Shown here piece by piece: positions 6,948 through 56,823 of a DNA stretch of 64,000 nt (position 1 is its first letter; every line of letters begins with the position of its first letter). Position numbers and translations under genes: made by a program. The notes beneath the pieces were generated by a model. It was given only the letters and a program-made list of their open reading frames with translations, was not told the origin of the DNA and searched no databases. The stretch spans positions 68,568-132,567 of the forward strand of contig JBAYUF010000002.1 in assembly GCA_041675205.1 (NCBI GenBank). The letters are read 5' to 3'. This DNA is from Patescibacteria group bacterium (GTDB lineage: Bacteria > Patescibacteriota > Patescibacteriia > GWA2-46-9).

Positions 6948-7024
6948 TTGGTGCTCCCGGCAGGAATCGAACCTGCAACCTTGTGGGTAGAAACCACACG
7001 CTCTATCCAATTGAGCTACAGGAG
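6948..7024 (-). tRNA. tRNA-Arg (anticodon TCT), CCA encoded
   Basis: Reverse complement folds as a cloverleaf: acceptor GCTCCTG/CGGGAGC, D-arm GCTC..GAGC, anticodon stem TGTGG/CCACA with loop TTTCTAC, T-arm GCAGG-TTCGATT-CCTGC, then A-CCA. Confidence 0.8.
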
Positions 7025-7102
7025 CACGTGAGGGGAGTATAGAGGGGACCCTTGTTGAAAATCAATCCTTCCCATTCCTGAAGCGACTGCTATAGTGCAT
7101 TT

Positions 7103-7835: not shown

Positions 7836-8798
7836 TTATTTTTTATTGTGAAATGCTTCGTGCACCCGGCGCAGTTCGCTATCTGTAAGATGGGTGTAAA
7901 TTTGCGTCGTCGTAATTGATGCGTGACCAAGCAGACTCTGCACCGAACGCACATCCGCGCCGTTTATGAGTAGGTCGGTGGCAAAAGAATGACGAAGGGT
8001 ATGCGGTGTCACCTGTTTCATAATACCGGCGACGCGGGCATATTTTTGAAGAAGCCGTTCAATGGAGCGGGGCGTTAGCGGCGCACCGCCTTCTTTTTTT
8101 GCCCGATCGTTTTGAATTTTGCCAGCACGGTCGTGTCGGACAAATAGATAGGGTGAAACATCGTGCCGTTCGGCCAGGTACGACTTTACATACGCCCGTG
8201 CGTCTGGCGACAAAAAAACAACACGAATTTTTGAACCTTTTCCTCGCACACTGAGTTCCGTTAGGGAACCATTGGTTGGTTCACGGGTGCTCACCTGCTC
8301 TCGTTTAAGGTTTGTCAACTCAGAGACACGTAGACCGGTCGAAAAAAGAACGGTCAGCATAGCAGCATCACGCAGTAGGGTCAGTTTTGGCTGCGGTACT
8401 CGTCCTGGCGCAGCGAGTAAGCGCTGTAGTTCTTCGCCGGTCAGAAATGAAATACTGCGGTCAGGCATTTTCATGAGTTCAATCTTTTCTGGTGCCAAGC
8501 TGGCCACATCTCGTTTGGCTAAATATTTTAGCAACGTGCGCAGCGCAATGAGGTGATAGTTTTGCGTGTTCTTTTTAAGTGCTTCGCCGTGAGTATCAGT
8601 AAAGCGATTGAGCCAGAGTCGGTATTGGCGAATATGTTCTGGTGTAATGCGGTTCGTGTTTGTGACACTGTGTTCCTCTGACCAGTCAGCGAAACGATTG
8701 AGGTAGAAGCGGTAATTGCGAATAGTCGCCGCGCTGCGGTTTTTTTCAATCTCCAGGTATTCCAAAAAATCTTGAATGTAGTCTTTGAGATTTGCCAT
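7836..8798 (-). CDS. xerC: site-specific tyrosine recombinase XerC/XerD family
   Basis: C-terminal catalytic motifs HTLRHSFAT...LLGHASITTTQIYTHL. Start taken at MANLKDY (inner Met). Confidence 0.85.
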   Translation of the reverse strand: MANLKDYIQDFLEYLEIEKNRSAATIRNYRFYLNRFADWSEEHSVTNTNRITPEHIRQYRLWLNRFTDTHGEALKKNTQNYHLIALRTLLKYLAKRDVASLAPEKIELMKMPDRSISFLTGEELQRLLAAPGRVPQPKLTLLRDAAMLTVLFSTGLRVSELTNLKREQVSTREPTNGSLTELSVRGKGSKIRVVFLSPDARAYVKSYLAERHDVSPYLFVRHDRAGKIQNDRAKKEGGAPLTPRSIERLLQKYARVAGIMKQVTPHTLRHSFATDLLINGADVRSVQSLLGHASITTTQIYTHLTDSELRRVHEAFHNKK

Positions 8799-8904
8799 AG
8801 TGAATATTGTACGACACGGAAAGGCCATACGCTATATGCTGTAAGGTTTTTGATAGTGGTAGGGTGAGCCAAAAAGCACCCCCTTTTTTAAGTTATTTTA
8901 AAAA

Positions 8905-19126: not shown

Positions 19127-20182
19127 ATGGCAAAAGCAAAACATACAAGTGGCGGGGACCATCGGGATAAAGCAGCCGCATCGGCGATTGCGCAGATCCA
19201 AGAGCGCTTTGGGGCGGGTTCAATTATGCGCTTCGGTGAAGCACAAACTATGGATATCGATGCAGTTTCAACTGGCTGTTTGTCGCTCGACTTGGCGCTC
19301 GGCGTTGGTGGTGTACCTCGGGGCCGCATCATTGAAATTTATGGTCCAGAAGCATCTGGTAAAACTACGTTGGCGCAACACATTGTGGCCGAGGTGCAAA
19401 AGGCTGGCGGTACCGCTGCCTTTATTGACGCTGAACACGCCTTGTCGCCGGAGTACGCCAAAAAAATTGGCGTGGACGTCGACAAGCTTTTTATTTCGCA
19501 GCCAGACAACGGCGAGCAAGCATTGGAAATTTTAGAAACACTTGTTCGTTCCAATGGTGTCGATGTTGTTGTTGTTGACTCGGTGGCGGCGTTAGTGCCA
19601 CGGGCAGAAATTGAGGGCGAAATGGGGGATTCTCACATGGGACTGCAGGCTCGGCTGATGAGCCAGGCACTCAGAAAACTGGCAGGTATAGTTTCAAAGA
19701 CGCAGACCGTCGTTATTTTCATCAACCAGATTCGAATGAAGATTGGTGTCTTTTTTGGTAATCCAGAAACGACCACCGGAGGCACGGCCCTGAAGTTTTA
19801 CTCGTCAGTGCGGATTGAAGTTCGCCGAGCGGCGCAGATTAAATCTGGAGAGAAGAATGTGGGAAACAGGGTAAAGGTGAAGATTGTGAAAAATAAAGTA
19901 GCCCCACCATTTCAGACCACCGAGTTTGATATTATGTATAACGAAGGCATTTCTGTGGCTGGGGACCTTATCGATACGGGGCTACTTTATGGTGCCGTTG
20001 AAAAAAATGGGAACAGTTACAGTGTGGGCGAAGAAAAGTTGGGTGTGGGTAGGGAGACCGCGCGGCAGTATCTGCGAGAGCACAAAGACACGATGAAGCG
20101 CATCCGGGAGATTGTTATGAAAAAAGTTGCGGAAGATAGGTTGGCCCAGAAACCATTGCCAGCGCCAGACAGCGAAGAATAA
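19127..20182 (+). CDS. recA: recombinase RecA
   Basis: Canonical RecA sequence ([11 protein letters not shown] ... [14 protein letters not shown]). Confidence 0.95.
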
Positions 20183-20271: not shown

Positions 20272-21576
20272 CTACTTGATGCCCATCTCCTTTGCTAGGC
20301 GATGGGCAACTTCGTTGCTCCACACGGCCATGGGCTGGCCGGTGGTTCGGTCGCGAACGTCGGCGAGCAGTGCGTGGCAGGTATTGCCACTACCGGGCAG
20401 TTCGGCCACCTGATTGCCCCCGTACCAGTTAGGGACGTTGAAGTGCCACGGCTCACCGAGATCGGTGTTGAGGCTGAAGTAGCTGCAGCCCACGCTACGC
20501 ATAGCGTGGAACAGCAGTCGCCGTTCCTCTTGCGCCTCAGTAAACACACCATCGTTCACCGTGGTGATGCCGAGATGGCGCAGGTATGTACGCAGGATGG
20601 GGTCCTGCGCAACTTCCTCGGCATAGACGGCGGTGTTGATGCCATCCATGTCGAAGTAGTTGATGACCGCCGGCGAGACAGCGACATCGGGTCGCGGGAC
20701 GTAGTCGAACGGTACGCCCAGGTTGACGTATTTCCCGGTCGTCGTGTTCCGCATCCAGACATCCACGGCTCCACCGTTGCCGTGCGCGGTAATAGCACTT
20801 TCCTCGATCTTGAGCGAACCTTCTCCCATATTCGCCTTGAAGGTGAGGAAGAGCTCGGTGGCCTTATAGACGGTGATGTCGAGAGAGACAGCCGCCTTGG
20901 CGAGTTCTTCACCTTGGCCGCTCTGCACCAGTCTGCTGATTGCCTCGATGAGGGCGTCGTCTTGGCGCAGACCGCAGTACGACCCGACGTCGTCGGCCTT
21001 GAGCCCGACTTCGAGCTCTTCAGCGATTGTCAGATCTTCGGGATTGAGGCCTCGTGACCTGATGATCTGTCCGCGCAGGTAGCGCCAGAGCGCCGCCTGC
21101 ACCCACCAGGGTCGCCAACCATCGACGACCACCAACTGGCGGTTGTGGTCGATGAGCAGCTGGTCTACTTCGAGTAGTGCTCCGAGTACTGGTATTCGTA
21201 CGAAGATCGTGGCAGGCCCACCGAGGCCGCGCCCGTAGTACTCGCACAGGCCGTTGACCTTGCCGACGTTGTAAATCGGCAAGGTGGCGACATCGACAAT
21301 CGGAACCAGCGGATCCGGATTTTCGACGTCGAGAGGTGAGATCGCCACCCCTCGATAACCGGTATCGTCACCATCGAGTCGAAGCTGCCCTGCTTCGCCT
21401 TTGAGCCATGCCACGCGCTGCCGGATGATCGGTTCATTTCTGTATTTCAAGTTCCGTGCTCCTGTTGCTGTTTGCACCTTGCTGGTGCGAGTTTGTGGTT
21501 TCGTAATGCTACATCCGGGCACCGTTGCACCCATCGTAAATGCAGCAGTTGCTTTAAGGAATGTTCTACGCCTCAC
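20272..21576 (-). CDS. Tat-signal secreted LAS/M15-family zinc metallopeptidase (VanX/VanY-like)
   Basis: N-terminus RRRTFLKATAAF is a twin-arginine signal. HGNGGAVD (H-x6-D) and EPWHF (E-x-x-H) match LAS/M15 zinc sites. GTG start. GC is about 60%. Confidence 0.55.
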   Translation of the reverse strand: MRRRTFLKATAAFTMGATVPGCSITKPQTRTSKVQTATGARNLKYRNEPIIRQRVAWLKGEAGQLRLDGDDTGYRGVAISPLDVENPDPLVPIVDVATLPIYNVGKVNGLCEYYGRGLGGPATIFVRIPVLGALLEVDQLLIDHNRQLVVVDGWRPWWVQAALWRYLRGQIIRSRGLNPEDLTIAEELEVGLKADDVGSYCGLRQDDALIEAISRLVQSGQGEELAKAAVSLDITVYKATELFLTFKANMGEGSLKIEESAITAHGNGGAVDVWMRNTTTGKYVNLGVPFDYVPRPDVAVSPAVINYFDMDGINTAVYAEEVAQDPILRTYLRHLGITTVNDGVFTEAQEERRLLFHAMRSVGCSYFSLNTDLGEPWHFNVPNWYGGNQVAELPGSGNTCHALLADVRDRTTGQPMAVWSNEVAHRLAKEMGIK

Positions 21577-21627
21577 TTCTTCTTACCGTACCTCCCTATG
21601 AAATTTTCAATGTCCAAGTAACGAGCG

Positions 21628-21656
21628 AGAATATCATTATTTTTTAAATTTGTCAA
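21628..21656 (-). promoter_or_regulatory. candidate sigma70 promoter for the M15 peptidase gene
   Basis: Minus strand reads TTGACA, 17-nt spacer, TATTCT. Confidence 0.45.
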
Positions 21657-22143
21657 TCATCAACTTTTAAAAGGGAGGCCGCCAGGTTTGAACCAAAGCG
21701 GCCTTGTGAGCAGGGCGAACCTGACTCTAGGTGCCGGAGGTTAATCCGGCTTCATGTTTCAAATTTTTTCCCCAACCGGAGGCTTAGGGGCAAAGCCTGA
21801 CCTGGCTAGGAAGCAGGTCCCTGATGAAGTCAGCATTTTTCTCCGTGCCACGGGGGAAAAAACTGACGTTCACCCGTCCATTCTCATGGACGGACGTGAC
21901 CGACCCTCTTCTGCCGGGGTCGATACCCGGAATCTCAACCGCGAGTACTCTCGCGTTTTGTTGGAGGCCAGCCTCTTCCACCTCACCACCACCATTTCTC
22001 GTTGCCTTCATGTCCGTATCCCTGTACTGCGGAGCTAGGTGTTGTAGGGCAAGCTGCTCCGCCTGCTTGCGACTACGAGGTTGCTCTTATCATATTGGTT
22101 GTCAACCAAAGTGGTCATTGCGACGTGGTCGCAATGTTTAAAA

Positions 22144-22292
22144 AGTCAGTAGTCCCACAGCAGCGGGGCAACAAGAGAGTCAGTAGTCCCACAGCAGCGG
22201 GGCAACAAGAGAGTCAGTAGTCCCACAGCAGCGGGACAACAAGAGAGTCAGTAGTCCCACAGCAGTGGGGCAACAAGAGAGTCAGTAGTCCC
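22144..22292. repeat. 34-bp perfect-to-near-perfect tandem repeat, 4.4 copies
   Basis: Unit AGTCAGTAGTCCCACAGCAGCGGGGCAACAAGAG x4 (two copies carry single substitutions) plus a 13-nt partial copy. No spacers. Preceded by the inverted repeat CATTGCGAC-GTG-GTCGCAATG. Confidence 0.9.
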
Positions 22293-22569
22293 GAAATGTA
22301 TACAACTCTCTAGCTCATTGATATAATATAGGCACTGGACTGGTGTGGTAGCAACATAAGTGGGTGCGTCGCAGGAATTCTTCCCGCCACACATACATCA
22401 ACTGCGACAACGCCGTTGTCACACTACCCATTTCAGATCAGAAGCCCCGCGCCAGAGACCAAAAATCTGGCGCGGGACCAACTTCATAAAACTTTTTATA
22501 TGTGTTGCGGCCCGCCTTCTCTTGCGAAAAGGCGGGCCGCGGTCGAAAAAGAGGATGGGGTACGGATCC

Positions 22570-22980
22570 TCAGCGCTGACAGTGTGCCAGACTGAATTTG
22601 ATCCGTTCGGCGTCCAGATTTGTGAACGTTGCCGTTCCTCGCGTGCTCTTCACCACGACAGGAACGGTGACGAGGTGTCGCGGCCGCCCGAGCCCTTGCT
22701 CATACGCCGCAACCTCCAGATTGCGCCAGTCGATCTCCTGGCCGTTGGTCGGCAGCAGGATCACCGTCAGTTGCGCATCTCTCCTCGAAACGCGAACACC
22801 GCTGTGGCTGCCAGTCTTTGCCACGAATCCGATGTCGCCTTCAAATATAAAGGAACACAGCAGATCGTTCGTGCTACGAACGACCCGGCGTCTCCATTCT
22901 GCTGCAGTCTCCGGCTCAGTTACCGCGGCAGCCATCGGCTTGCGGTCCCGCTTTCCGTCACGAACAGGAATTCCTTTCAA
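22570..22980 (-). CDS. hypothetical protein, TTG start, high GC
   Basis: GGAGGG ribosome-binding site 6 nt before TTG. 136 aa with an RRRVVR motif; no confident family assignment. Confidence 0.4.
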   Translation of the reverse strand: MKGIPVRDGKRDRKPMAAAVTEPETAAEWRRRVVRSTNDLLCSFIFEGDIGFVAKTGSHSGVRVSRRDAQLTVILLPTNGQEIDWRNLEVAAYEQGLGRPRHLVTVPVVVKSTRGTATFTNLDAERIKFSLAHCQR

Positions 22981-23062
22981 GATGTACCCTCCGGTTGTGT
23001 AGTTGACCCACGTTCAGGGTCGGCCAGATTTAACCACGTAGTAGGAATGGCGTCAATTAAAA

Positions 23063-23088
23063 AACACAGCCCCCAATTGGGGGCTGTG
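23063..23088 (-). terminator. rho-independent terminator for efp
   Basis: ACACAGCCCCC-AATT-GGGGGCTGTGT followed on the minus strand by TTTTTTAATT. Confidence 0.8.
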
Positions 23089-23109
23089 TTTTTGTTGTCT
23101 TTTTTACTA

Positions 23110-23679
23110 CTACACCCGTTCTACGTATTCTTCCCGTTCGGTATTCACCCGAATGGTGTCACCTTCTTTGATAAACAAAGGAACATTTAGGGTAGCGCCG
23201 GTTTCTAGCTTCGCGGCTTTCAAAACGTTGCCTTGGGCGGTGTCACCACGGGCACCTGGTTCAGTTTCCAAAACCTTTAACTCAACCTTCTTCGGTAACT
23301 CAATGTTAATGGGTTTGTCGTTGTAGTACAGGACGTCGAGAATCTCGCCGTCTTTCAAAAAACTAATTTTAGTGCCAAGTACCGAAGCCGACAGAGAAAA
23401 TTGCTCAAAGGTATCGCCATCCATGAATTGCAATTGGTCACCCTCTCGGTAGAGGTAGCTCACTTTGCGCCGAACTAAGTCAGCTGTTTCTACTCGGTCG
23501 CCAGGCTTAAAGCTAATTTCCAAAACCTTGCCAGTAATGAGGTGGCGCATCTTCGTTTGCATGACAGGCTTCCGTTGTTGCATACGAACAAAGTTTGCCT
23601 CAAGCACAATGAACGGTTCGCCATCGTAATTAATGACGAGGCCAACCTTGATGTCGTTTAAAGTGGAGATCATCCCCAT
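23110..23679 (-). CDS. efp: elongation factor P
   Basis: 189 aa matching EF-P along its full length (KPGKG-like loop region). Confidence 0.9.
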   Translation of the reverse strand: MGMISTLNDIKVGLVINYDGEPFIVLEANFVRMQQRKPVMQTKMRHLITGKVLEISFKPGDRVETADLVRRKVSYLYREGDQLQFMDGDTFEQFSLSASVLGTKISFLKDGEILDVLYYNDKPINIELPKKVELKVLETEPGARGDTAQGNVLKAAKLETGATLNVPLFIKEGDTIRVNTEREEYVERV

Positions 23680-26615: not shown

Positions 26616-26663
26616 TACGGTTTTTGCATATTCCCCTAAGATAAAAAAGGGGAGTATGCTGGT

Positions 26664-26693
26664 ATGTTTCCATGTACTAGTACATGGAAACAT
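26664..26693. promoter_or_regulatory. perfect 30-bp palindrome carrying the TGTACTAGTACA (TrpR-operator-like) core
   Basis: ATGTTTCCATGTACTAGTACATGGAAACAT. Lies between the convergent DUF378 and ychF genes. Confidence 0.5.
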
Positions 26694-26715
26694 AGTATGT
26701 AACAACTGTTTGGTG

Positions 26716-42373: not shown

Positions 42374-44590
42374 CTACGTTTCCGATTGCATGCCGATATA
42401 GCCGCAACCCTTCATAGAGCAGCGTACCGCGCCTTTGGCTGCGAAGACAAGCAGTGAGCCGCAGGTTGGGCATTTCTCGCCGGTTGGTTTAGACCATAGC
42501 GCAAATGAGCAGGCCGGGTAGGTGTTGCAGGCAAAAAAGTTTCGCCCACGCTTCGAGCGTTTTTCAACGAGGTCACCCTTACCGCAGCCAGGACATGGTA
42601 CCCCGGTGGATTTCACGATTGGTTTAATTTTTTTGCATTCTGGATAGCCGGTGCAACCAAGGAAGGTACCAAATCGCCCACGTTTAACGGCCATGGGCTT
42701 GCCACATAATTCACATGGTTCTGCCGCAAATGTTTCTGCTGCCACCGCTTCGTCGCTCCCCGCTAGCGGCTTTGTGGTGCGACATTCCGGGTATCCGGTG
42801 CAGGCCAGGAACCGACCAAAGCGACCGAACTTTACCACCATCGGTTTACCGCAGGTGGCGCAGACTTGGTCACTGGCTTCTTGGGTTATGCTCTCTTTAC
42901 TGATTTCAGCATCTTTTACTATAAGGTGCTCTTTGAATGGGGTGTAGAAAGCACGCAGCACGGGCACGAGCTGTTTTTCACCCTCAGCAATTTCATCGAG
43001 CTCGCGTTCCAGCGTGGCGGTGAACTCAAAGTCAATGATTTCTGGGAAGTGTTCAACTAAAAGGTCATTTACCAATTCAGCGAGTTCGGTGGGATACAGC
43101 CGTCGTTCTTTTTTTTCAACGTAACCGCGGTCTGTAATGGTGCTAATGGTTGGGGCGTAGGTTGATGGTCGGCCGATGCCATGTTCTTCAAGCGATTTAA
43201 TGAGCGTAGCGTCTGAGAAGCGAGCGGGGGGTTCGGTGAAGTGTTGCGTGCCGCCAACTTTTTGTAGCATTGCCGTTGCTCCAACAGTAACGTCCGGCAA
43301 GTCGACGTCGTTTGCATCGTTATAGTAGACCTTGCGCCAACCATCAAAAGAAAGAACTGAGCCACTCGCACGGAGTGTATAGTCGGGAGCTTGCACGGTC
43401 GCCACGTCAATTGTGGTAGTGCGAACAATTGCCTCCGGCATTTGCGAAGCTATGGCCCGTCGCCAGATGAGTTCGTAGAGCTTCTTTTGTTTCGGGTCGA
43501 GGTACTCTGCCACTGACTCTGGAGTGCGAAGCGCGCTTGATGGGCGAATGGCTTCGTGTGCCTCTTGGGCGTTTTTGGAACGTGATTTAAATCGACGCGG
43601 CTCTGTTGCGTACTCTTTGCCGTAGGTTTCCAGAAGGTACGTCTGTGCTTCAGTTAAAAATTTCTCTGACAGGTTCATTGAATCGGTTCTCATATACGTA
43701 ATGAGACCGACGGCACCTTCGTCACCAATGGTTACCCCCTCGTACAGTTGCTGCGCCACCATCATGGTTTGCTTCGGACTCATATTGAGGCGACGGCTAG
43801 CCTCTTGCTGCAGAATAGATGTGGTGAAAGGCGGGGGTGGTGTTTTCTTCGCTTCGCGGCCGTTTACGTCCGCAATTTTGTAGCTGGCTTTTTCAAGATC
43901 AGCGACAATTGCATCGGCCGCCGATATTCCGGGTAGGGCAAATTTATCGAGCCGCTCACCATTACGGGTGAACAGTGCGGCAGTTATAGTGCCAGTGGGT
44001 ACGGTAAAGTCAGCTTCAATCGTCCAGTACTCTTCAGCATTGAAGGCTCGTATTTCTCGTTCTCGTTCCACAACCATTCGTACGGCGACCGATTGTACAC
44101 GACCGGCTGAGAGACCTCGATAAATTTTTCGCCATAGAAATGGAGAGAGTTCGTAGCCAACTAATCTGTCGAGCATTCGTCGCGCCTGTTGGGAGTCGAC
44201 CATTCGCTCGTCAATGGTGCGTGGGTGCTCAAGCGCTTCAGCAATCGCTTCGTCAGTAATTTCATGAAAAGCGATACGTTGTGAGTTTTCGTTGGTGAGG
44301 CCAAGTGCTTCTTTGAGGTGCCAGGCAATAGCTTCCCCTTCACGGTCTTCATCAGTTGCCAGAATGACCATGTCAGCCTTTTTGGCCTTGAGCTTTAAAG
44401 CAGTCAGATTTTTCTTCGCTTTCAAAGGCACGACGTACTGCGGTGCGAAATCGTTCTCTATATCGATACCCATTTTCGACTTCGGCAAGTCGCGGATGTG
44501 GCCATAGGAAGACATGACAGAAAATTTCTTGCCAAGGAACTTCTGAATGGTTTTGGCTTTTGTTGGCGATTCAACGATGACGAGTTTCAT
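42374..44590 (-). CDS. topA: DNA topoisomerase I
   Basis: TOPRIM plus active-site Tyr region, with multiple C-terminal C4 zinc ribbons. Confidence 0.9.
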   Translation of the reverse strand: MKLVIVESPTKAKTIQKFLGKKFSVMSSYGHIRDLPKSKMGIDIENDFAPQYVVPLKAKKNLTALKLKAKKADMVILATDEDREGEAIAWHLKEALGLTNENSQRIAFHEITDEAIAEALEHPRTIDERMVDSQQARRMLDRLVGYELSPFLWRKIYRGLSAGRVQSVAVRMVVEREREIRAFNAEEYWTIEADFTVPTGTITAALFTRNGERLDKFALPGISAADAIVADLEKASYKIADVNGREAKKTPPPPFTTSILQQEASRRLNMSPKQTMMVAQQLYEGVTIGDEGAVGLITYMRTDSMNLSEKFLTEAQTYLLETYGKEYATEPRRFKSRSKNAQEAHEAIRPSSALRTPESVAEYLDPKQKKLYELIWRRAIASQMPEAIVRTTTIDVATVQAPDYTLRASGSVLSFDGWRKVYYNDANDVDLPDVTVGATAMLQKVGGTQHFTEPPARFSDATLIKSLEEHGIGRPSTYAPTISTITDRGYVEKKERRLYPTELAELVNDLLVEHFPEIIDFEFTATLERELDEIAEGEKQLVPVLRAFYTPFKEHLIVKDAEISKESITQEASDQVCATCGKPMVVKFGRFGRFLACTGYPECRTTKPLAGSDEAVAAETFAAEPCELCGKPMAVKRGRFGTFLGCTGYPECKKIKPIVKSTGVPCPGCGKGDLVEKRSKRGRNFFACNTYPACSFALWSKPTGEKCPTCGSLLVFAAKGAVRCSMKGCGYIGMQSET

Positions 44591-44731
44591 AATAGGCAGA
44601 AGCGTACTCGAGGGTTCTGTAGGGTGTCAACCTTAGTGGTCATTTCGATAACATCAGAATGTTTAAAAAGCCAGTAGGCCCGTTACCTTAATTAACATTC
44701 AAAATTTTTTGAATGTATTGAATATTGGGTA

Positions 44732-44761
44732 TCCCGCCATTTTAGGCGGGACATCTTTTTT
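44732..44761 (+). terminator. plus-strand terminator-like hairpin with T6, in the intergenic region between two minus-strand genes
   Basis: TCCCGCC-ATTTTA-GGCGGGA then CATCTTTTTT. Flanked by palindromes CATTCAAAATTTTTTGAATG and CATTCCTG-TTTAG-CAGGAATG. Confidence 0.45.
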
Positions 44762-44883
44762 CATTCCTGTTTAGCAGGAATGCATAGATTATTAGTAGTG
44801 CCGCTAGCAAGCGGCGCAGCAGCGGGGCAACACTTCGACTCGCTCCGCTCGCTCAGTGTAAATAGTTTAATTTGTTTGGATTC

Positions 44884-45981
44884 TTACAATTTTATATATC
44901 GTTTCCCGCCCACATCTCGCACGAGGCCAGAAAGCTCAAGCGAGAGGAGTTCAGTGGCGAGTATTGTTGTTGATAATGAACATCGTGCCGCTAGGTCATC
45001 GAAGTATATTGGTTCGTGGGAAAGTGCCGCCATTATGTTTGTCGCGGTTGCGCTCAGTTGTTGATTGAGTTTTTTTGTTGGCGCTACTCTCGGTTCTAAC
45101 CCTAATGCAACGAAAACGTCTTGCGCGCCAGTAATCACGTGCGCTCCGTCGTGTAGTAGCGCGTTGCAGCCGGCGGCGTTTTCTTCGGTGATGCGCCCAG
45201 GGATGGCTAAAATTTCACGGTTATAGTCGAGAGCCAAACGAGCGGTGATGAGGGCACCGCTTTTCAGTGGTGCTTCGATGACCAATGTTCCAAGGCTTAG
45301 ACCGGCTATGATGCGATTGCGTTCCGGGAAATGATGTTGACTCGGCCCAACGCCGGGTGGGTACTCGCTCATAAGGAGGCCACCGGATTCGACAATTTTC
45401 GTTGCCAGTTGACGATGTTCTGGTGGGTAGATATCTGATTCTGCAATGGAACTACCGAGCACAGCAATAGTTCGGCCGCCAACTTCAAGTGTCGCCTCAT
45501 GCACGATTGCGTCTATGCCACGCGCCAGACCGCTCACCGTTGTTAGCTCATTTTTTGCCAGCGCTTGCGTTAGATGAAGCGCGGCTACCTTTCCGTACTC
45601 AGTCATTTTACGTGTTCCGACTATTGCGATTGTCGGTTCGACAGGTTTGTTCAGGGGGAGTACACCACGGTAAAAAAATAGGTGTGGTGCGTCGGGTATT
45701 TCTTTTAGGAGTGCGGGGTAGGTACTATCTGTCTTGATGACAAATTCTATGTTTTCGCGACGCAGTTTCTCTTGTGTTGTTGTAGAATCGTTGGTTGTAC
45801 GATAGGTAAAAAATTTCTCAATTGTTTCATGCTCAAAGTTCAGGCCGCGCAATGTTTCACGCGATGCACGCCAAGCTGCTTCACCGCTCGGCAGATACCT
45901 GGCCAGCTTTCTTATTTGTATAGGCGCCAAAACGAAGCTGAGTGCCAGCCAAAAATCTCTATCTTGCGTTTCAGTGGCCAT
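44884..45981 (-). CDS. dprA: DNA-processing protein DprA
   Basis: Rossmann-like DprA core (GLARGIDAIVHEA...IAVLGSS). Confidence 0.85.
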   Translation of the reverse strand: MATETQDRDFWLALSFVLAPIQIRKLARYLPSGEAAWRASRETLRGLNFEHETIEKFFTYRTTNDSTTTQEKLRRENIEFVIKTDSTYPALLKEIPDAPHLFFYRGVLPLNKPVEPTIAIVGTRKMTEYGKVAALHLTQALAKNELTTVSGLARGIDAIVHEATLEVGGRTIAVLGSSIAESDIYPPEHRQLATKIVESGGLLMSEYPPGVGPSQHHFPERNRIIAGLSLGTLVIEAPLKSGALITARLALDYNREILAIPGRITEENAAGCNALLHDGAHVITGAQDVFVALGLEPRVAPTKKLNQQLSATATNIMAALSHEPIYFDDLAARCSLSTTILATELLSLELSGLVRDVGGKRYIKL

Positions 45982-46516: not shown

Positions 46517-46978
46517 TTGAGTTATTTTTTCTTGCACTTAAGGCTCGCTTTTTAGATAAGATTTTTATTACTCTTTTGCTTGCTTAAAAGAATAGAGACC
46601 AGTCCGCCGTAGGCCGATCCGCCTTTGGCGGAAAAATGGCACCCTCGCTTCGGCAGCTACGCGGTTTCTCGCAAAAGTTGCAGCACAGCCATAAACTTCC
46701 CTTCGCACACGCTCAGGGTCGAACAGTATGGCTGTTTCTCGCTGCAACTTTTCCTTAACCGCTGGGCTGCCTTTGCTATGGGGTTCGTGGGAGTCATATA
46801 AAAACTTTTTGAAAAGGGAGCGCCGCGGGTACGCTCCAGGTCGGTTGACCGGAAAACGTACCCGCGGCGGGTGCCATGTCAGGGTTGGATTCCCTGTTGA
46901 CACGAGTCAGCGATGCTGACGTTGTTGAAGAAATTCAGATGTGCGAAGCGACTGGAAGCCGCCCCGCTTGGTTCGGGT

Positions 46979-47446
46979 TCAGGCCTTCTTGTGGCTGTGG
47001 CCGCCTTTGTCGAGGATGCTGGCGGCTTCGTAGTTGTGCGAGTTGTTGTCGGTGCCGACCTTGGTGTCGATTCCGATGGATCCCTCCTTGTTGCGCACGA
47101 GCGCCGGGGAAATCGTCTTCTCGGTCTTCAGGATCGCGTTGGCGGTGCCGGTGCCGACCTTGGTGCTGGTCGAAAGCGCGGTGCCCTCCATGGCGTCAGC
47201 GATGTCGGCACGATGAGCCGTCAGCGCAATCGCAGGATCGTCGGCGGCGATGGCCGAGGTGAGGGCCGGCATCGTGGTCGTCTTGCCGGTGCCGTTCGGA
47301 ATGATGGCCGTGCCGGTGTTCCCGACGTCGACGGGAGCGGCGGCGATGGCCTGCAGAGCGGGGTTGCCAGCCGTAGCAGCCGGCGGCGACGAATACACCA
47401 GGAGTGCGGCGAGGAGGGCGAACCCTCCGTAACGGATCAACTTCAT
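46979..47446 (-). CDS. secreted Ala/Thr/Gly-rich low-complexity protein, high GC
   Basis: AAGGAG ribosome-binding site. Signal peptide MKLIRYGGFALLAALLVYSSPPAATA. Confidence 0.45.
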   Translation of the reverse strand: MKLIRYGGFALLAALLVYSSPPAATAGNPALQAIAAAPVDVGNTGTAIIPNGTGKTTTMPALTSAIAADDPAIALTAHRADIADAMEGTALSTSTKVGTGTANAILKTEKTISPALVRNKEGSIGIDTKVGTDNNSHNYEAASILDKGGHSHKKA

Positions 47447-47721
47447 GATGGAACTCCTTCTATTGTCTTCCGATTGTCATTGAACGTTTCGCCTTCAAGC
47501 TAGTTTCTCGAGGGAATCCCGAGCCTATATCTAGTATCTTGAGTGGCATCCCAAGTCTAGCTTCTTTTCTTGAAGACTTCCCGAATGGGCAACGATATAA
47601 TATAATTTTTTCCTTTTTTGTCAACAAATTTTCCGCAGTTTTAAATATCTAGGATTGACCTTTTGCCCTTCTTTTGCTTTACTATGCGGTCGCTTCAACC
47701 GTAGAATTTGTTTGCGACTAC

Positions 47722-47754
47722 TGACGAAACGTCGGTACATCAACCAAGGAGGGC
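47722..47754 (+). promoter_or_regulatory. conserved 5' element, copy 1 (hairpin GACG-AAA-CGTC + GGTACATCAACCAAGGAGG)
   Basis: Shares about 28 nt, with identical spacing to the start codon, with copy 2 at 47911-47940. Confidence 0.5.
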
Positions 47755-47758
47755 TATC

Positions 47759-47887
47759 GTGAACCGTCGCCGTGCACTCATACTCGTTCTTTTCGTCGCC
47801 GGGGTCGTGGCTCTTTTCGACAGCTACTCTGGCGCGTTCAAGGTTAACGCGGCAGGAAACTGCCGCGGGTATTCACTCAGCCGTTAG
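47759..47887 (+). CDS. candidate 42-aa secreted/membrane peptide (GTG start)
   Basis: AAGGAGG ribosome-binding site. VNRRRALILVLFVAGVVALF... Below the 60-aa cutoff of the ORF track. Confidence 0.3.
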   Translation: MNRRRALILVLFVAGVVALFDSYSGAFKVNAAGNCRGYSLSR

Positions 47888-47910
47888 GAGGTTTTTCGTT
47901 TCAACCCAAC

Positions 47911-47940
47911 CGACGGAACGTCGGTAGACAACTTAGGAGG
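47911..47940 (+). promoter_or_regulatory. conserved 5' element, copy 2 (hairpin CGACG-GAA-CGTCG + GTAGACAACTTAGGAGG)
   Basis: See copy 1. Confidence 0.5.
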
Positions 47941-47947
47941 AAGTCCA

Positions 47948-48397
47948 ATGAACGTTCGTTCCATTTTTGCCCTGGCTCTTACGGCGGTTGGTGTGATCGC
48001 CATCCTCCACAGTGACGCCGGAAAGTGGGCAGCGCCCGCGAAGCCGGTCGTTGCTGAAGCGGACTGCCCGGGCAGCACCCATGCTGTTCGGCACCACCAC
48101 CGCGAGGCCGAGGAGTACATCCTCGGCGGCGACGTTGTTCGGGCCATTCACGAGATCCAGCTGGCTTCGTTGTTCTCGTGTGACGTCAGCCCTGGCATCA
48201 GACACCTTCAGGTGCTGGCCTGGAACAGCCTCGCTCAGGCTCATTTCCAGCAGGGAGCTTGGCCGGACAATGGTCATGCACAGCAGGCGCTCGAGGAGAT
48301 TCGGCATGCGCAGCGACTTCTTACGATGGTGGCCGACCACGAATCTTCGTGGCCCCATTCGATGATCATCGACCACGAATCTTCGTTGCCACATTAG
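47948..48397 (+). CDS. secreted His-rich protein, high GC
   Basis: Signal peptide MNVRSIFALALTAVGVIAILHS. HAVRHHH and a repeated DHESS(W/L)PH C-terminus. Confidence 0.45.
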   Translation: MNVRSIFALALTAVGVIAILHSDAGKWAAPAKPVVAEADCPGSTHAVRHHHREAEEYILGGDVVRAIHEIQLASLFSCDVSPGIRHLQVLAWNSLAQAHFQQGAWPDNGHAQQALEEIRHAQRLLTMVADHESSWPHSMIIDHESSLPH

Positions 48398-48567
48398 CCC
48401 GTGCCCACCGGCCGCTCTCAATCTCGAGGGCGGCCGATACTTCTTTATATAAACTATTGACTTTGTGGCAGTTTTCAGCTAAATTATCGTGTTCGATTCC
48501 GGCTCGCACTCTAACAATAACTGCAGACAACCGCTCTGACATACGTTCAGGGCAAAGGAGACGCTAG

Positions 48568-49680
48568 ATGCGTCAGTTCTTCGTTCGTTTCCTTGGCGCC
48601 ATCTTGGCGTCCATCACCATGACCCTCGCTCCTGCGCCGGCTTCGGCTGGAGCGGGGAGTCAGATCGCATTGCTGTCCGAGTTTTGCCTCTACCCCGATT
48701 GCGGGGCGAGGCTTGCCTACACCTCTCATGAGTGGGGGTGGGCCAATCCGGCCACCCTCACCGAAACATTCGATCTCGGCCTCGACGACTGGGCGTCGGT
48801 CGGTGGTGCCTACTTCTACGGAAGCACCATCTACTCCGGTACGATCACCGCTGGCTTCAAGCCGGTGGTCGTGCAGCTCAACTACGTCAACGCCGCTGTT
48901 GACGGTGAGCTGCCCTCGAGCGACCTCGACCTTGCGTTCGAAACGTCACGCTGGCGGCTGTCGTTGGCGTGGGACCTGGCGTCCGTCGGCATCGATGGCT
49001 TGTCCATCGGCGTCATCGGCGTCCTGCCTGGAAGCGAGAATAAGGTTGGGATTTCAACCGAGATTCCTGACTTCGGCGACCTCGACCTCGTGAAGGCTCA
49101 CGAGGAACCCGGTTGGGACTTTACTCTCGGGATGCTCTACGAGATGGGCGAGCGCGATTGGCTGCGTTTTGGTGCGACGTTGAACGTCGCATCTTACGAC
49201 AGCAGCGTTGACGCGCTCGACCTCGACAGCGGTGAGGTCTACCGGACCAACTCCACGTCGAACCTCTGGTTCGGCCGGCTGGGTGCGACGGTACATCCGT
49301 TCGTGCCCATGGGCCTTGCCAGTGGTGAGTCCTCGTGGGACGAGTGGCTGCGCAAGGTGGAGATTTCAGCCGACCTTCGTGTCGTGAATATTTCCATCTC
49401 GGGCGAAGATACCATTCGCCCGATCGACGCCTTCTTCGGCGTCGATGTTCCCTTGCTCCCGAGGCATTGGAACCCGCTGGCGAAGTATGTTGAACTCGTC
49501 GGTGTCAGTGGCGTCGGGACCGATGGTAGCTGGGGCGCAGGCCTCGGCATCTACGGTCAAGGGCCGCTTCGGTGGCTGACCTGCGACACTATGTACTCTT
49601 CCCAGCCCGGGGGTGACCTCGGGAAGGATTTCACGCTGAGCGGCATCGGCTGCACAGCATCAATGCCGCTGCCTTTCTAG
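48568..49680 (+). CDS. secreted OMP-like beta-barrel candidate ending in Phe
   Basis: Signal peptide ...LAPAPASA. Alternating Gly/aromatic pattern. C-terminus ...ASMPLPF. Own TTGACT-17-TAAATT promoter. Confidence 0.4.
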   Translation: MRQFFVRFLGAILASITMTLAPAPASAGAGSQIALLSEFCLYPDCGARLAYTSHEWGWANPATLTETFDLGLDDWASVGGAYFYGSTIYSGTITAGFKPVVVQLNYVNAAVDGELPSSDLDLAFETSRWRLSLAWDLASVGIDGLSIGVIGVLPGSENKVGISTEIPDFGDLDLVKAHEEPGWDFTLGMLYEMGERDWLRFGATLNVASYDSSVDALDLDSGEVYRTNSTSNLWFGRLGATVHPFVPMGLASGESSWDEWLRKVEISADLRVVNISISGEDTIRPIDAFFGVDVPLLPRHWNPLAKYVELVGVSGVGTDGSWGAGLGIYGQGPLRWLTCDTMYSSQPGGDLGKDFTLSGIGCTASMPLPF

Positions 49681-49716
49681 GAGGACTGGCAGCGCCCATT
49701 TCGTTTGGAGGGAAAG

Positions 49717-54662: not shown

Positions 54663-54705
54663 TTGCTAGATTTTTTATTGTTAAATACAATGTACTAGTA
54701 CATTG
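54663..54705 (+). promoter_or_regulatory. promoter (TTGCTA-17-TACAAT) overlapped by the 18-bp perfect palindrome CAATGTACTAGTACATTG (TrpR-type operator)
   Basis: Palindrome at 54688-54705 overlaps the -10 and the predicted transcription start of the trpR-like gene. Confidence 0.55.
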
Positions 54706-54755
54706 ATATGGGGAACGTAACAAAAAAGTACATTAGTGAAGTTGAGGAAGTAGTT

Positions 54756-55001: not shown

Positions 55002-55029
55002 CACCACATCTCTTTCTGCTATAGTTCAC

Positions 55030-55041
55030 TGTACTAGTACA
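55030..55041 (+). promoter_or_regulatory. second TGTACTAGTACA operator, upstream of the trp leader
   Basis: Exact 12-bp core within the imperfect palindrome CACTGTACTAGTACACTG. Confidence 0.55.
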
Positions 55042-55058
55042 CTGAAACAAAGAAAAGT

Positions 55059-55127
55059 ATGATTTCTATACACATTGAAGCAAACGCTCGTTGGTGGTCC
55101 GTTCTCTATCTCAGAGGGCGAGCCTAG
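55059..55127 (+). CDS. trpL: trp leader peptide, 22 aa, with tandem Trp codons
   Basis: ATG ATT TCT ATA CAC ATT GAA GCA AAC GCT CGT TGG TGG TCC ... TAG translates to MISIHIEANARWWSVLYLRGRA. Confidence 0.5.
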   Translation: MISIHIEANARWWSVLYLRGRA

Positions 55128-55251: not shown

Positions 55252-56823
55252 ATGAAAAACGGTGAAGCACTGAATCGTGAAATGGGTGAGGGGATGGAAA
55301 GCTGTTGGAATGGAGCATGGCGTGTGATTGATGATTACGCGGCGAATGTGCTCGATGATTTCCAGCGCATGGCTGCTGTGGGTGGTAGGCACCTGGTGCC
55401 GGTCGTTATTGGGTTGCCAAGTGACAACGTAACACCGGTAGCGGTGTATCAATCCGTCCGTCGAGCCACCACCCCAACAGTATTTCTTGAAAGTGTGCCG
55501 CAGGGGCAGCACTTGGGGGATTACACCATCGTTGGTTGTCGGATGAGCGCCCGTTTCACCGTGCGAGGTGAACGGTCGGCATTGAAACCACGGCTGGGTC
55601 GGGTGGAAATTGCCGAGGGAATGGCTCTCGAGCATCTGGAAGCGTTTTTGCAGTCAACAACACCACTGCAGCAACCTGGTCGAGCACCATTTCTTGGTGG
55701 TGCAATCGGCTACGTTGGTTTTGAGGGTGTATGCCTCATTGAACCAACGGTGTCACGGCACAGCGTGAACAAACTGGATTGGCCAGAGATTGATCTCGTC
55801 GCGTTCGACGAAGTAATCGTCTTTGACCATGCCCGTCAGCTTGTTTACCTCGTCGCTTTGGCTGAGTTCAACGGCAGCGAAAATGTAGCGGCGGCGCATC
55901 GGGATGCGTACGAACGTGCCGGTCGACTGATCCGTCATCTGCAAAAACCAATCGAGCCGCTCACCAAGCTGACCGGCGTGGATGGTAAGATTTCGAGCAA
56001 CATGACTCGGGACGTCTACGAGCGGATGATCGAAACCGGGAAACGGTATATCACCAGCGGTGATGTATTTCAGATAGTGCTGTCGCAGCGGTTCAGTGTT
56101 GGTTTTTCTGGTGATTCATTCGACTTCTACCGACACCTGCGTCGTATGAATCCATCACCGTATATGTTTCACCTTGAGCTTAGCGACGGGCGAGTGCTTA
56201 CTGGTGCGTCGCCCGAGGTTATGGTGAAAGTCAGTGGTGATGTCGTGCACATTCGACCAATTGCTGGAACCAGACGGCGGAGCATCGATGCGGTGGAAGA
56301 CGAGCGCCTGCGGCAGGAGCTGGCGGCAGATCCAAAGGAGCGGGCCGAGCACAGCATGTTGGTTGATTTGGCGCGAAATGATGTTGGCCGAGTGACAGTG
56401 ACGGGGAGTGTAGTCGTCAGCGGAGTGATGCGGGTAGAGAAATACAGCACGGTGCAGCATCTGGTGAGCGACGTGAGCGGACGACTGCACGAAGCTATTA
56501 CTCCGTTTCGGGCGTTTCTCACCTGCTTGCCGGCTGGTACGCTCTCCGGTGCGCCTAAGATTCGCGCCTGTCAATTGCTGGTTGAACTTGAGCCGTGTGC
56601 TCGTGGGCCATATGGCGGCGCTGTTGGTTGGTTCACCTCATACGGTCTTGATACGGGCATAGCGATTCGAACGGCGTGGGTAGATTCCGGAACTATGTAC
56701 TGGCAAGCAGGGGGAGGCGTAGTTGCCGACTCAACACCTGCCGGTGAGTACGAGGAGTCGCTAACGAAAGCAAGATCAATTGGCAACGTGCTCAAGCATG
56801 CAACGGGAGGTACTGGACGATGA
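55252..56823 (+). CDS. trpE: anthranilate synthase component I
   Basis: 523 aa chorismate-binding enzyme (LSQRF ... GAPK ... GGAVG). Confidence 0.9.
   Translation: MKNGEALNREMGEGMESCWNGAWRVIDDYAANVLDDFQRMAAVGGRHLVPVVIGLPSDNVTPVAVYQSVRRATTPTVFLESVPQGQHLGDYTIVGCRMSARFTVRGERSALKPRLGRVEIAEGMALEHLEAFLQSTTPLQQPGRAPFLGGAIGYVGFEGVCLIEPTVSRHSVNKLDWPEIDLVAFDEVIVFDHARQLVYLVALAEFNGSENVAAAHRDAYERAGRLIRHLQKPIEPLTKLTGVDGKISSNMTRDVYERMIETGKRYITSGDVFQIVLSQRFSVGFSGDSFDFYRHLRRMNPSPYMFHLELSDGRVLTGASPEVMVKVSGDVVHIRPIAGTRRRSIDAVEDERLRQELAADPKERAEHSMLVDLARNDVGRVTVTGSVVVSGVMRVEKYSTVQHLVSDVSGRLHEAITPFRAFLTCLPAGTLSGAPKIRACQLLVELEPCARGPYGGAVGWFTSYGLDTGIAIRTAWVDSGTMYWQAGGGVVADSTPAGEYEESLTKARSIGNVLKHATGGTGR

Follow-up and report, generated by a model that had tools for sequence, protein, structure and literature searches.

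A 34-bp tandem array in a Patescibacterium genome and the hairpin-bearing element that it shares with the dprA-topA spacer

Patescibacteria have small and compact genomes, and little is known of their non-coding DNA. In the genome studied here an intergenic gap holds a 34-bp unit repeated head-to-tail, preceded by an inverted repeat, and the 16-nt core of the unit occurs again about 22 kb away; a preliminary description, made from the letters of the sequence, likened the array to iterons, to a set of binding sites and to a minisatellite. Which of these likenesses holds, and what the two sites have in common, is the question addressed here. We analysed the window, by which we mean the whole 64-kb stretch of DNA that contains both sites, together with 15.5 kb of its flanks (~80 kb of the genome), and refer to the array locus as site 1 and to the recurrence as site 2 (Table 1). 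The host is a Candidatus Uhrbacteria-like Patescibacterium, its EF-P being 84% identical to that of two Patescibacteria / Candidatus Uhrbacteria MAGs and 76-77% identical to that of two more.

Table 1. Coordinates of the features at site 1 and site 2, numbered from the first letter of the window.
Feature	Position	Strand	Remarks
recA	19127-20182	+	
Tat-signal M15 peptidase gene	20272-21576	-	~60% GC
Promoter-like ATGACC-18-TATGAT	22089-22118	-	9 of 12; points outward from the array, to the ORFan orf75 and the M15 gene; overlaps the block
Palindrome TTGGTTG-T-CAACCAA	22095-22109		block copy 1
Dispersed 60-nt block, copy 1	22097-22156	+	repeat search, alignment; covariance-model score 92.6 bits
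Contents of block copy 1	22116-22136 (palindrome)		palindrome CATTGCGAC-GTG-GTCGCAATG, then TTTAAAAAG, then 13-nt box AGTCAGTAGTCCC
Array and its unit	22144-22292	+	unit: GTAG, stem GTCCCAC / GYGGGGC, loop AGCA, CAACA, linker
Array copy starts	22144, 22178, 22212, 22246; 13-nt partial copy 22280-22292	+	Tandem Repeats Finder (TRF)
Promoter-like TATACA-17-TATAAT with upstream TG	22299-22327	+	10 of 12, best of the region; 7 nt past the array, facing away
Strongly structured gene-free segment	22334-22482	.	fold z = -4.6 (+), -5.1 (-); no Rfam match
efp, rpsR, ssb, rpsF	beyond the 1.5-kb gap that holds the array	-	
Promoter-like site of topA	-35 TTGACA 44630-44625; -10 TACGCT 44606-44601; ATG 44590	-	-35 is the minus-strand end of the block
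Dispersed 60-nt block, copy 2	44622-44681	+	palindromes partly decayed (44620-44634, 44641-44661); alignment, covariance model
Hairpin CATTCAAAA-TT-TTTTGAATG, site 2 only	44696-44715	+	palindrome scan
Terminator-like TCCCGCC-ATTTTA-GGCGGGA, then T run, site 2 only	44732-44761	+	terminator scan
Hairpin CATTCCTG-TTTAG-CAGGAATG, site 2 only	44762-44782	+	palindrome scan
GTAG-tagged 8-bp stem-loop GTGCCGCT-AGCA-AGCGGCGC, then exact core CAGCAGCGGGGCAACA	44795-44832 (core 44817-44832)	+	

The array is real and ordinary in kind. With Tandem Repeats Finder a single strong array is found in the window, with a period of 34, 4.4 copies, 97% matches and no indels. Its consensus unit is the one written in the preliminary description, and, as stated there, two substitutions alone distinguish the copies; they are 22236 G>A in copy 3 and 22266 C>T in copy 4. 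Stop codons fall within the array in all six reading frames, in agreement with the earlier claim that it is non-coding, and the 9-bp inverted repeat in front of it is perfect. The array, placed earlier inside a high-GC patch, has 57% GC against 50.6% for the window, and the high-GC patches proper lie on either side of it, in the M15 gene and at 22400-23000 (58-59%). A further patch of 58-62% GC, at 46900-49700, contains reading frames of 196, 149 and 370 aa with no Pfam match and two short repeats of its own, a 36-nt unit present twice in tandem (48324-48395) and a 32-nt unit present 1.9 times (47500-47559). The preliminary description had named an assembly artefact as what could overturn it, and this is contradicted in two ways. 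The window sequence is part of a 186-kb ENA contig (ERZ27247358 k141_1660735) whose name implies k = 141, far above the longest exact internal repeat of the array region (58 nt), and an independently assembled JGI contig, which differs by one mismatch in 5062 bp, has the same 4.4 copies and both substitutions; the array is therefore not an artefact of assembly. The equal copy number comes from two assemblies of one population (99.98% identical). Being non-coding, head-to-tail and built on a unit of at least 10 bp, the array is a minisatellite in form, as had been proposed, and not a CRISPR, since its units abut without variable spacers and no cas-like domains occur in the window.

The recurrence of the core had been placed at about 44815, just 3' of dprA, and it is indeed there: the 16-mer is found again exactly, and once, 52 nt past the stop codon of dprA (ORF 44884-45981, minus strand), where 0.10 matches with up to two mismatches would be expected by chance. 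What the two sites share extends further. A 60-nt block, 78% identical between its copies and in one orientation, precedes each site, and the final 13 nt of the block also open the array unit; this block, the hairpin in the unit and the outward-facing promoter-like sites that flank the array had all been missed. Pairing in the palindromes of the block is retained between the two copies in 90.6% of pair cells, against 20-47% when the partners are slid, and three pairs are altered on both sides; with only two sequences to compare, and 63 of 500 shuffles doing equally well, this retention is suggestive. Strings of the form CATT-N(11-15)-AATG occur eight times in the 64 kb, and the four that are good palindromes of 20-21 bp all lie at the two loci (at 22116, 44641, 44696 and 44762), with common closing bases and different inner stems. 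Duplication of a longer segment that included the 5' end of topA was rejected, because similarity between the sites stops at the block in the direction of the downstream genes (alignment score 12 against 13.9 for shuffles). The window also contains a second family of dispersed long palindromes (...TGTTTCCATGTACTAGTACATGGAAACA..., with core GTACTAGTAC), one member of which lies where a DUF378 gene and ychF converge (26659-26705) and two in the spacer of ~1 kb that precedes an anthranilate synthase gene (54690-54723 and 55016-55062; gene at 55252-56823); these look like operators or terminators.

The element is restricted to this lineage as far as our searches reached. Neither the block nor the core has a third copy in the ~80 kb of window and flanks. 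A covariance model of the block run over 1.25 Mb of related loci gave chance-level matches only, the best of which, on a Buchananbacteria contig, scored 16.6 bits with E = 0.04 and is therefore probably due to chance; this match (L008, 7607-7663, minus strand) contains AAGTCAGTAGTC, 12 nt identical to the box that starts the unit, in an AT-rich spacer upstream of efp. The block motif AATGTTTAAAAAGNCAGTAGNCC has no match in 185,579 species genomes, and its sole match on a metagenome contig, in a scan whose incomplete coverage is evident from its returning neither the source of the window nor the JGI contig, was rejected as fortuitous, lying at the 3' end of a ychF gene on a low-GC contig. Two scans of viral contigs returned nothing, nor did blastn searches of plasmid and phage sequences with the two intergenic regions. 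In Rfam 15 nothing reached the gathering threshold at either site, where 21500-23200 and 44500-44950 gave chance-level matches only (E up to 10), and the Rfam matches in the window are two tRNAs; a 96-nt 'tRNA-Asn' called by ARAGORN at 48861-48956 has no Rfam support.

Each unit of the array can form a small hairpin, and a hairpin of the same design stands at site 2. The GTAG tag, the last G of which is predicted to pair, and the AGCA loop are common to both, while the stems differ in sequence and each is complementary within itself. The consensus stem of the unit is weak, with 7 bp that include a G-T pair and an A/C mismatch, and as DNA it folds no better than shuffles (z = -0.6); the stem at site 2 is fully paired. 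Both substitutions in the array stabilise the hairpin, from -9.6 to -10.2 and -13.5 kcal/mol as RNA and from -2.1 to -4.3 and -6.0 kcal/mol as DNA, a gain of at least 0.5 kcal/mol being available to just 12 of the 102 possible single substitutions of the unit. Folded as RNA, either strand of the whole array is far more stable than its shuffles (z = -6.4 and -5.7). The matches to a loose pattern, AG[AT]AG..CC..GG..CAAC, all lie on the plus strand and are confined to the four full units, site 2 and a long hairpin at 22440-22482, against 0.78 expected; the pattern was made after the data were seen. Elsewhere in the window GTAG-tagged hairpins occur at the background level expected by chance.

At site 1 the array lies within 1.5 kb of DNA without conserved genes, between efp and the M15 peptidase gene. 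Two reading frames in this gap, orf75 (75 aa) and orf136 (136 aa), have no homologues among 5.8 billion or 1.8 billion proteins, score weakly in codon usage and lack a DNA-binding signature. Two candidates for relatives of the local frames were rejected, one (P0170), a single weak match, as a repetitive junk protein and the other, a small reading frame in the relative L011, as unrelated to orf75. In the nearest relatives the gap between efp and recA is about 1 kb and contains neither the M15 gene, nor the ORFans, nor an array, and no sequence similarity is detectable in it when the two nearest relatives are compared with each other or with the present genome. This gap is hypervariable in the clade (21577-23109 in the window, 8571-9602 in L004 and 8571-9502 in L011), at 1-3 kb without a conserved reading frame, and Rfam finds no non-coding RNA in it in four relatives. 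Homologues of the M15 peptidase, at up to 60% identity, occur in other genomic contexts, none with the array, and the gene was probably acquired horizontally. The array had been described as upstream of the M15 promoter, which is true in that it lies ~570 bp from the start of the gene and loose in that a better promoter-like site of the gene's own (21656-21628) and an ORFan frame lie between. Five promoter-like sites are found in the region, where 0.9 are expected. Directly downstream of the best of them is the structured segment of Table 1, which has no homologue in the relatives and ends in an 11-bp GC hairpin (22446-22478, -15.3 kcal/mol as DNA) flanked by sequences (AGAAG...CAAC) similar to those in the array unit; the segment is a candidate for a small RNA that has escaped annotation. 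TGCGAC/GTCGCA hexamers, of which the window has 41, cluster around the array, with five at 22068-22408 (340 nt) against ~0.26 expected per 400 nt; two of the five form the palindrome at 22116-22136 and two a predicted stem at 22368/22403.

At site 2 the spacer between dprA and topA is 293 nt long, compared with 54-102 nt in three relatives. Both copies of block plus hairpin are insertions relative to sister genomes, the nearest relatives having neither. In all four genomes, the window and the three relatives, the best promoter-like site stands equally far from the topA ATG, with its -10 ending 10-13 nt upstream, and the TTGACA of the block is likely to serve as the -35 of the topA promoter in the present genome. 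No Shine-Dalgarno sequence is evident before topA in any of the four (44588-44630 in the window; L088, L090 and L092), which together with the closeness of the promoter-like site to the ATG suggests an mRNA with a very short leader or none.

One reading of these observations, which we hold with about even confidence, is that the array is a minisatellite produced by slippage from a low-copy hairpin repeat resembling REPs and BIMEs, and not a set of iterons. Its source would be a dispersed intergenic repeat of ~80 nt, low in copy number, composed of the 60-nt block with its two palindromes and of the short GTAG-tagged stem-loop with AGCA loop and CAACA tail, and present in at least two copies, one in the gap between efp and the M15 gene and one in the dprA-topA spacer. 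The 34-bp unit would be one small hairpin with a 14-nt linker, bracketed by the 13-nt box, and slipped-strand mispairing or unequal recombination between such boxes would most likely have brought it to 4.4 copies, the result being REP-like hairpins clustered head to tail, in form comparable with a REP cluster or BIME. If the array has a role, it would most likely act through its series of hairpins, extruded or transcribed, between the two outward-facing promoter-like sites, as a barrier, an insulator or an element at transcript ends. Both the slippage and any such function are inferred.

Of the alternatives, the one that survives best, though we think it rather unlikely, is that the array is a minisatellite without function, slippage debris in a fast-evolving and gene-poor gap, with the hairpins and the block as leftovers of duplication. 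The absence of detectable similarity in the efp-recA gap among the present genome and its two nearest relatives would fit such debris, as would local reading frames that are ORFans, M15 homologues that lack a homologous array, and the identity of copy number and substitutions in the two assemblies inspected. Debris would not lead one to expect that both substitutions stabilise the hairpin, that the palindromes keep their pairing despite changes of sequence, or that the core is conserved exactly across 22 kb.

A somewhat less probable alternative, unlikely in our judgement, is that the units are binding sites for a regulator, one protein acting on the core or unit to control both flanking outward promoters and topA. 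This is still a live rival because the 16-mer is conserved exactly at both loci, beside a block that is only 78% identical, as a protein-binding site might be, and because the TGCGAC hexamers cluster around the array; the array is also placed between the two divergent promoter-like sites (22118-22089 on the minus strand and 22299-22327 on the plus strand), and the element at site 2 stands upstream of the promoter-like site of topA. Against it, no regulator gene is adjacent, the flanking ORFans being without a DNA-binding signature, and the period of 34 bp is 3.2 helical turns, so that neighbouring sites would lie on different faces of the helix. Two loci are known, site 2 has a single core, ~190 bp from the topA -35, and palindromes that differ in sequence yet keep their pairing fit hairpins better than a fixed protein site.

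A transcribed array working at the RNA level, either within a small RNA or as a 5' leader built of repeated hairpins (sponge or scaffold), is improbable in our estimate. The folding of the array as RNA, the strongly structured neighbour with a strong promoter-like site adjoining it, and an intrinsic terminator on the plus strand of site 2 with no plus-strand gene upstream all speak for this reading, but any tandem repeat that bears a hairpin yields a low fold z-score, the best promoter, on the plus strand, points away from the array, and there is no Rfam match. An equally long shot combines several of the features above: the block with its hairpin would be a mobile mini-element specific to Patescibacteria with an outward -35 of its own, the one used by topA at site 2, and the array would be a switch of variable copy number that determines spacing or strength for the two outward promoters, which would control an unannotated structured RNA (22334-22482) and the Tat-secreted cell-wall peptidase; this would amount to phase variation in an episymbiont.

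The likeness to iterons is superficial. Among the genes of the window, for which the preliminary description had proposed a check for replication and partition functions, Pfam annotation finds housekeeping genes only, with no replication initiator, partition protein, transposase, RAYT or Cas protein; DnaA-box-like sites (TTATCCACA-like) number 8 against 11.5 expected, with none near the array, and the GC skew is positive throughout without a switch. One XerC/D-like tyrosine recombinase is encoded 14 kb from the array (7836-8828), ~800 bp from a tRNA-Arg (TCT) gene (6949-7025) with a reading frame without Pfam match between them, a locus that could be an integration hotspot or simply that of a housekeeping Xer recombinase. 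To our knowledge, dif/Xer, parS, matS, the CRP-S competence box and CtsR, Fur and CodY boxes do not fit in sequence or spacing, nor do TIGR, retron and DGR elements, and these were set aside. Direct repeats beside an inverted repeat do look like iterons, but in a housekeeping stretch of chromosome among ribosomal-protein genes, recA and topA, with no plasmid or phage matches, and given the two assemblies discussed above, we regard an origin of replication, like an artefact, as very improbable.

If the preferred reading of a hairpin repeat is right, with one copy lying over the topA promoter and the other expanded to a minisatellite, the two loci would provide a small example of repeat dynamics in Patescibacteria, and the array could serve as a strain marker. 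The main value of the analysis is that it sets the iteron reading aside and defines the true extent of the shared element; it opens no new question.

Compared with known systems, the array shares with plasmid and chromosomal iterons the direct repeats beside an inverted repeat and an AT-rich stretch, and differs from them in having no initiator gene, DnaA boxes or origin signature, a unit longer than is typical and a period that is not a whole number of helical turns. Like the ends of MITEs and IS elements with an outward-facing -35, a short repeat end here bears TTGACA where topA needs its -35 and is an insertion relative to related genomes; unlike them, it has no definable terminal inverted repeats or target-site duplication, no known transposase and two copies only. 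The near-identical, non-coding, head-to-tail units of more than 10 bp between genes are those of bacterial intergenic minisatellites (VNTR loci), whose defining practical property, polymorphism of copy number, is not seen in two assemblies of one population, and from which the array differs also in a unit visibly derived from a dispersed repeat. As to REPs, Di Nocera et al. 2013 (PMC3733652) give as criteria an imperfect palindrome of 20-40 bp with a GTAG-like tag, a stem of ~5-13 bp and a short loop, and in the GTAG-tagged REPs that they describe most stems are 6-9 bp long, loops have 2-4 nt, and G-T pairs and variants with complementary stems occur; clusters in which a single unit recurs in tandem, along with DNA from its flanks, are a known arrangement. 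High copy number also defines REPs, at tens to hundreds per genome, and is not seen here, since there are two loci only in ~80 kb; for this reason, and because no Y1 (RAYT) transposase is visible among the genes of the window, membership of the REPs is not established. The head-to-tail orientation of all array copies is moreover a rare arrangement, and Patescibacteria lie outside the phyla surveyed in that study. In form, the unit (GTAG, 7-bp stem, AGCA) and the site 2 copy (GTAG, 8-bp stem, AGCA) are nevertheless those of GTAG-tagged REPs and BIMEs (PMC3733652): small, GC-rich intergenic stem-loops with GTAG at one end and a 4-nt loop, which vary by complementary stem changes and G-T pairs, stand downstream of a gene at site 2, and are repeated as single units in tandem at site 1.
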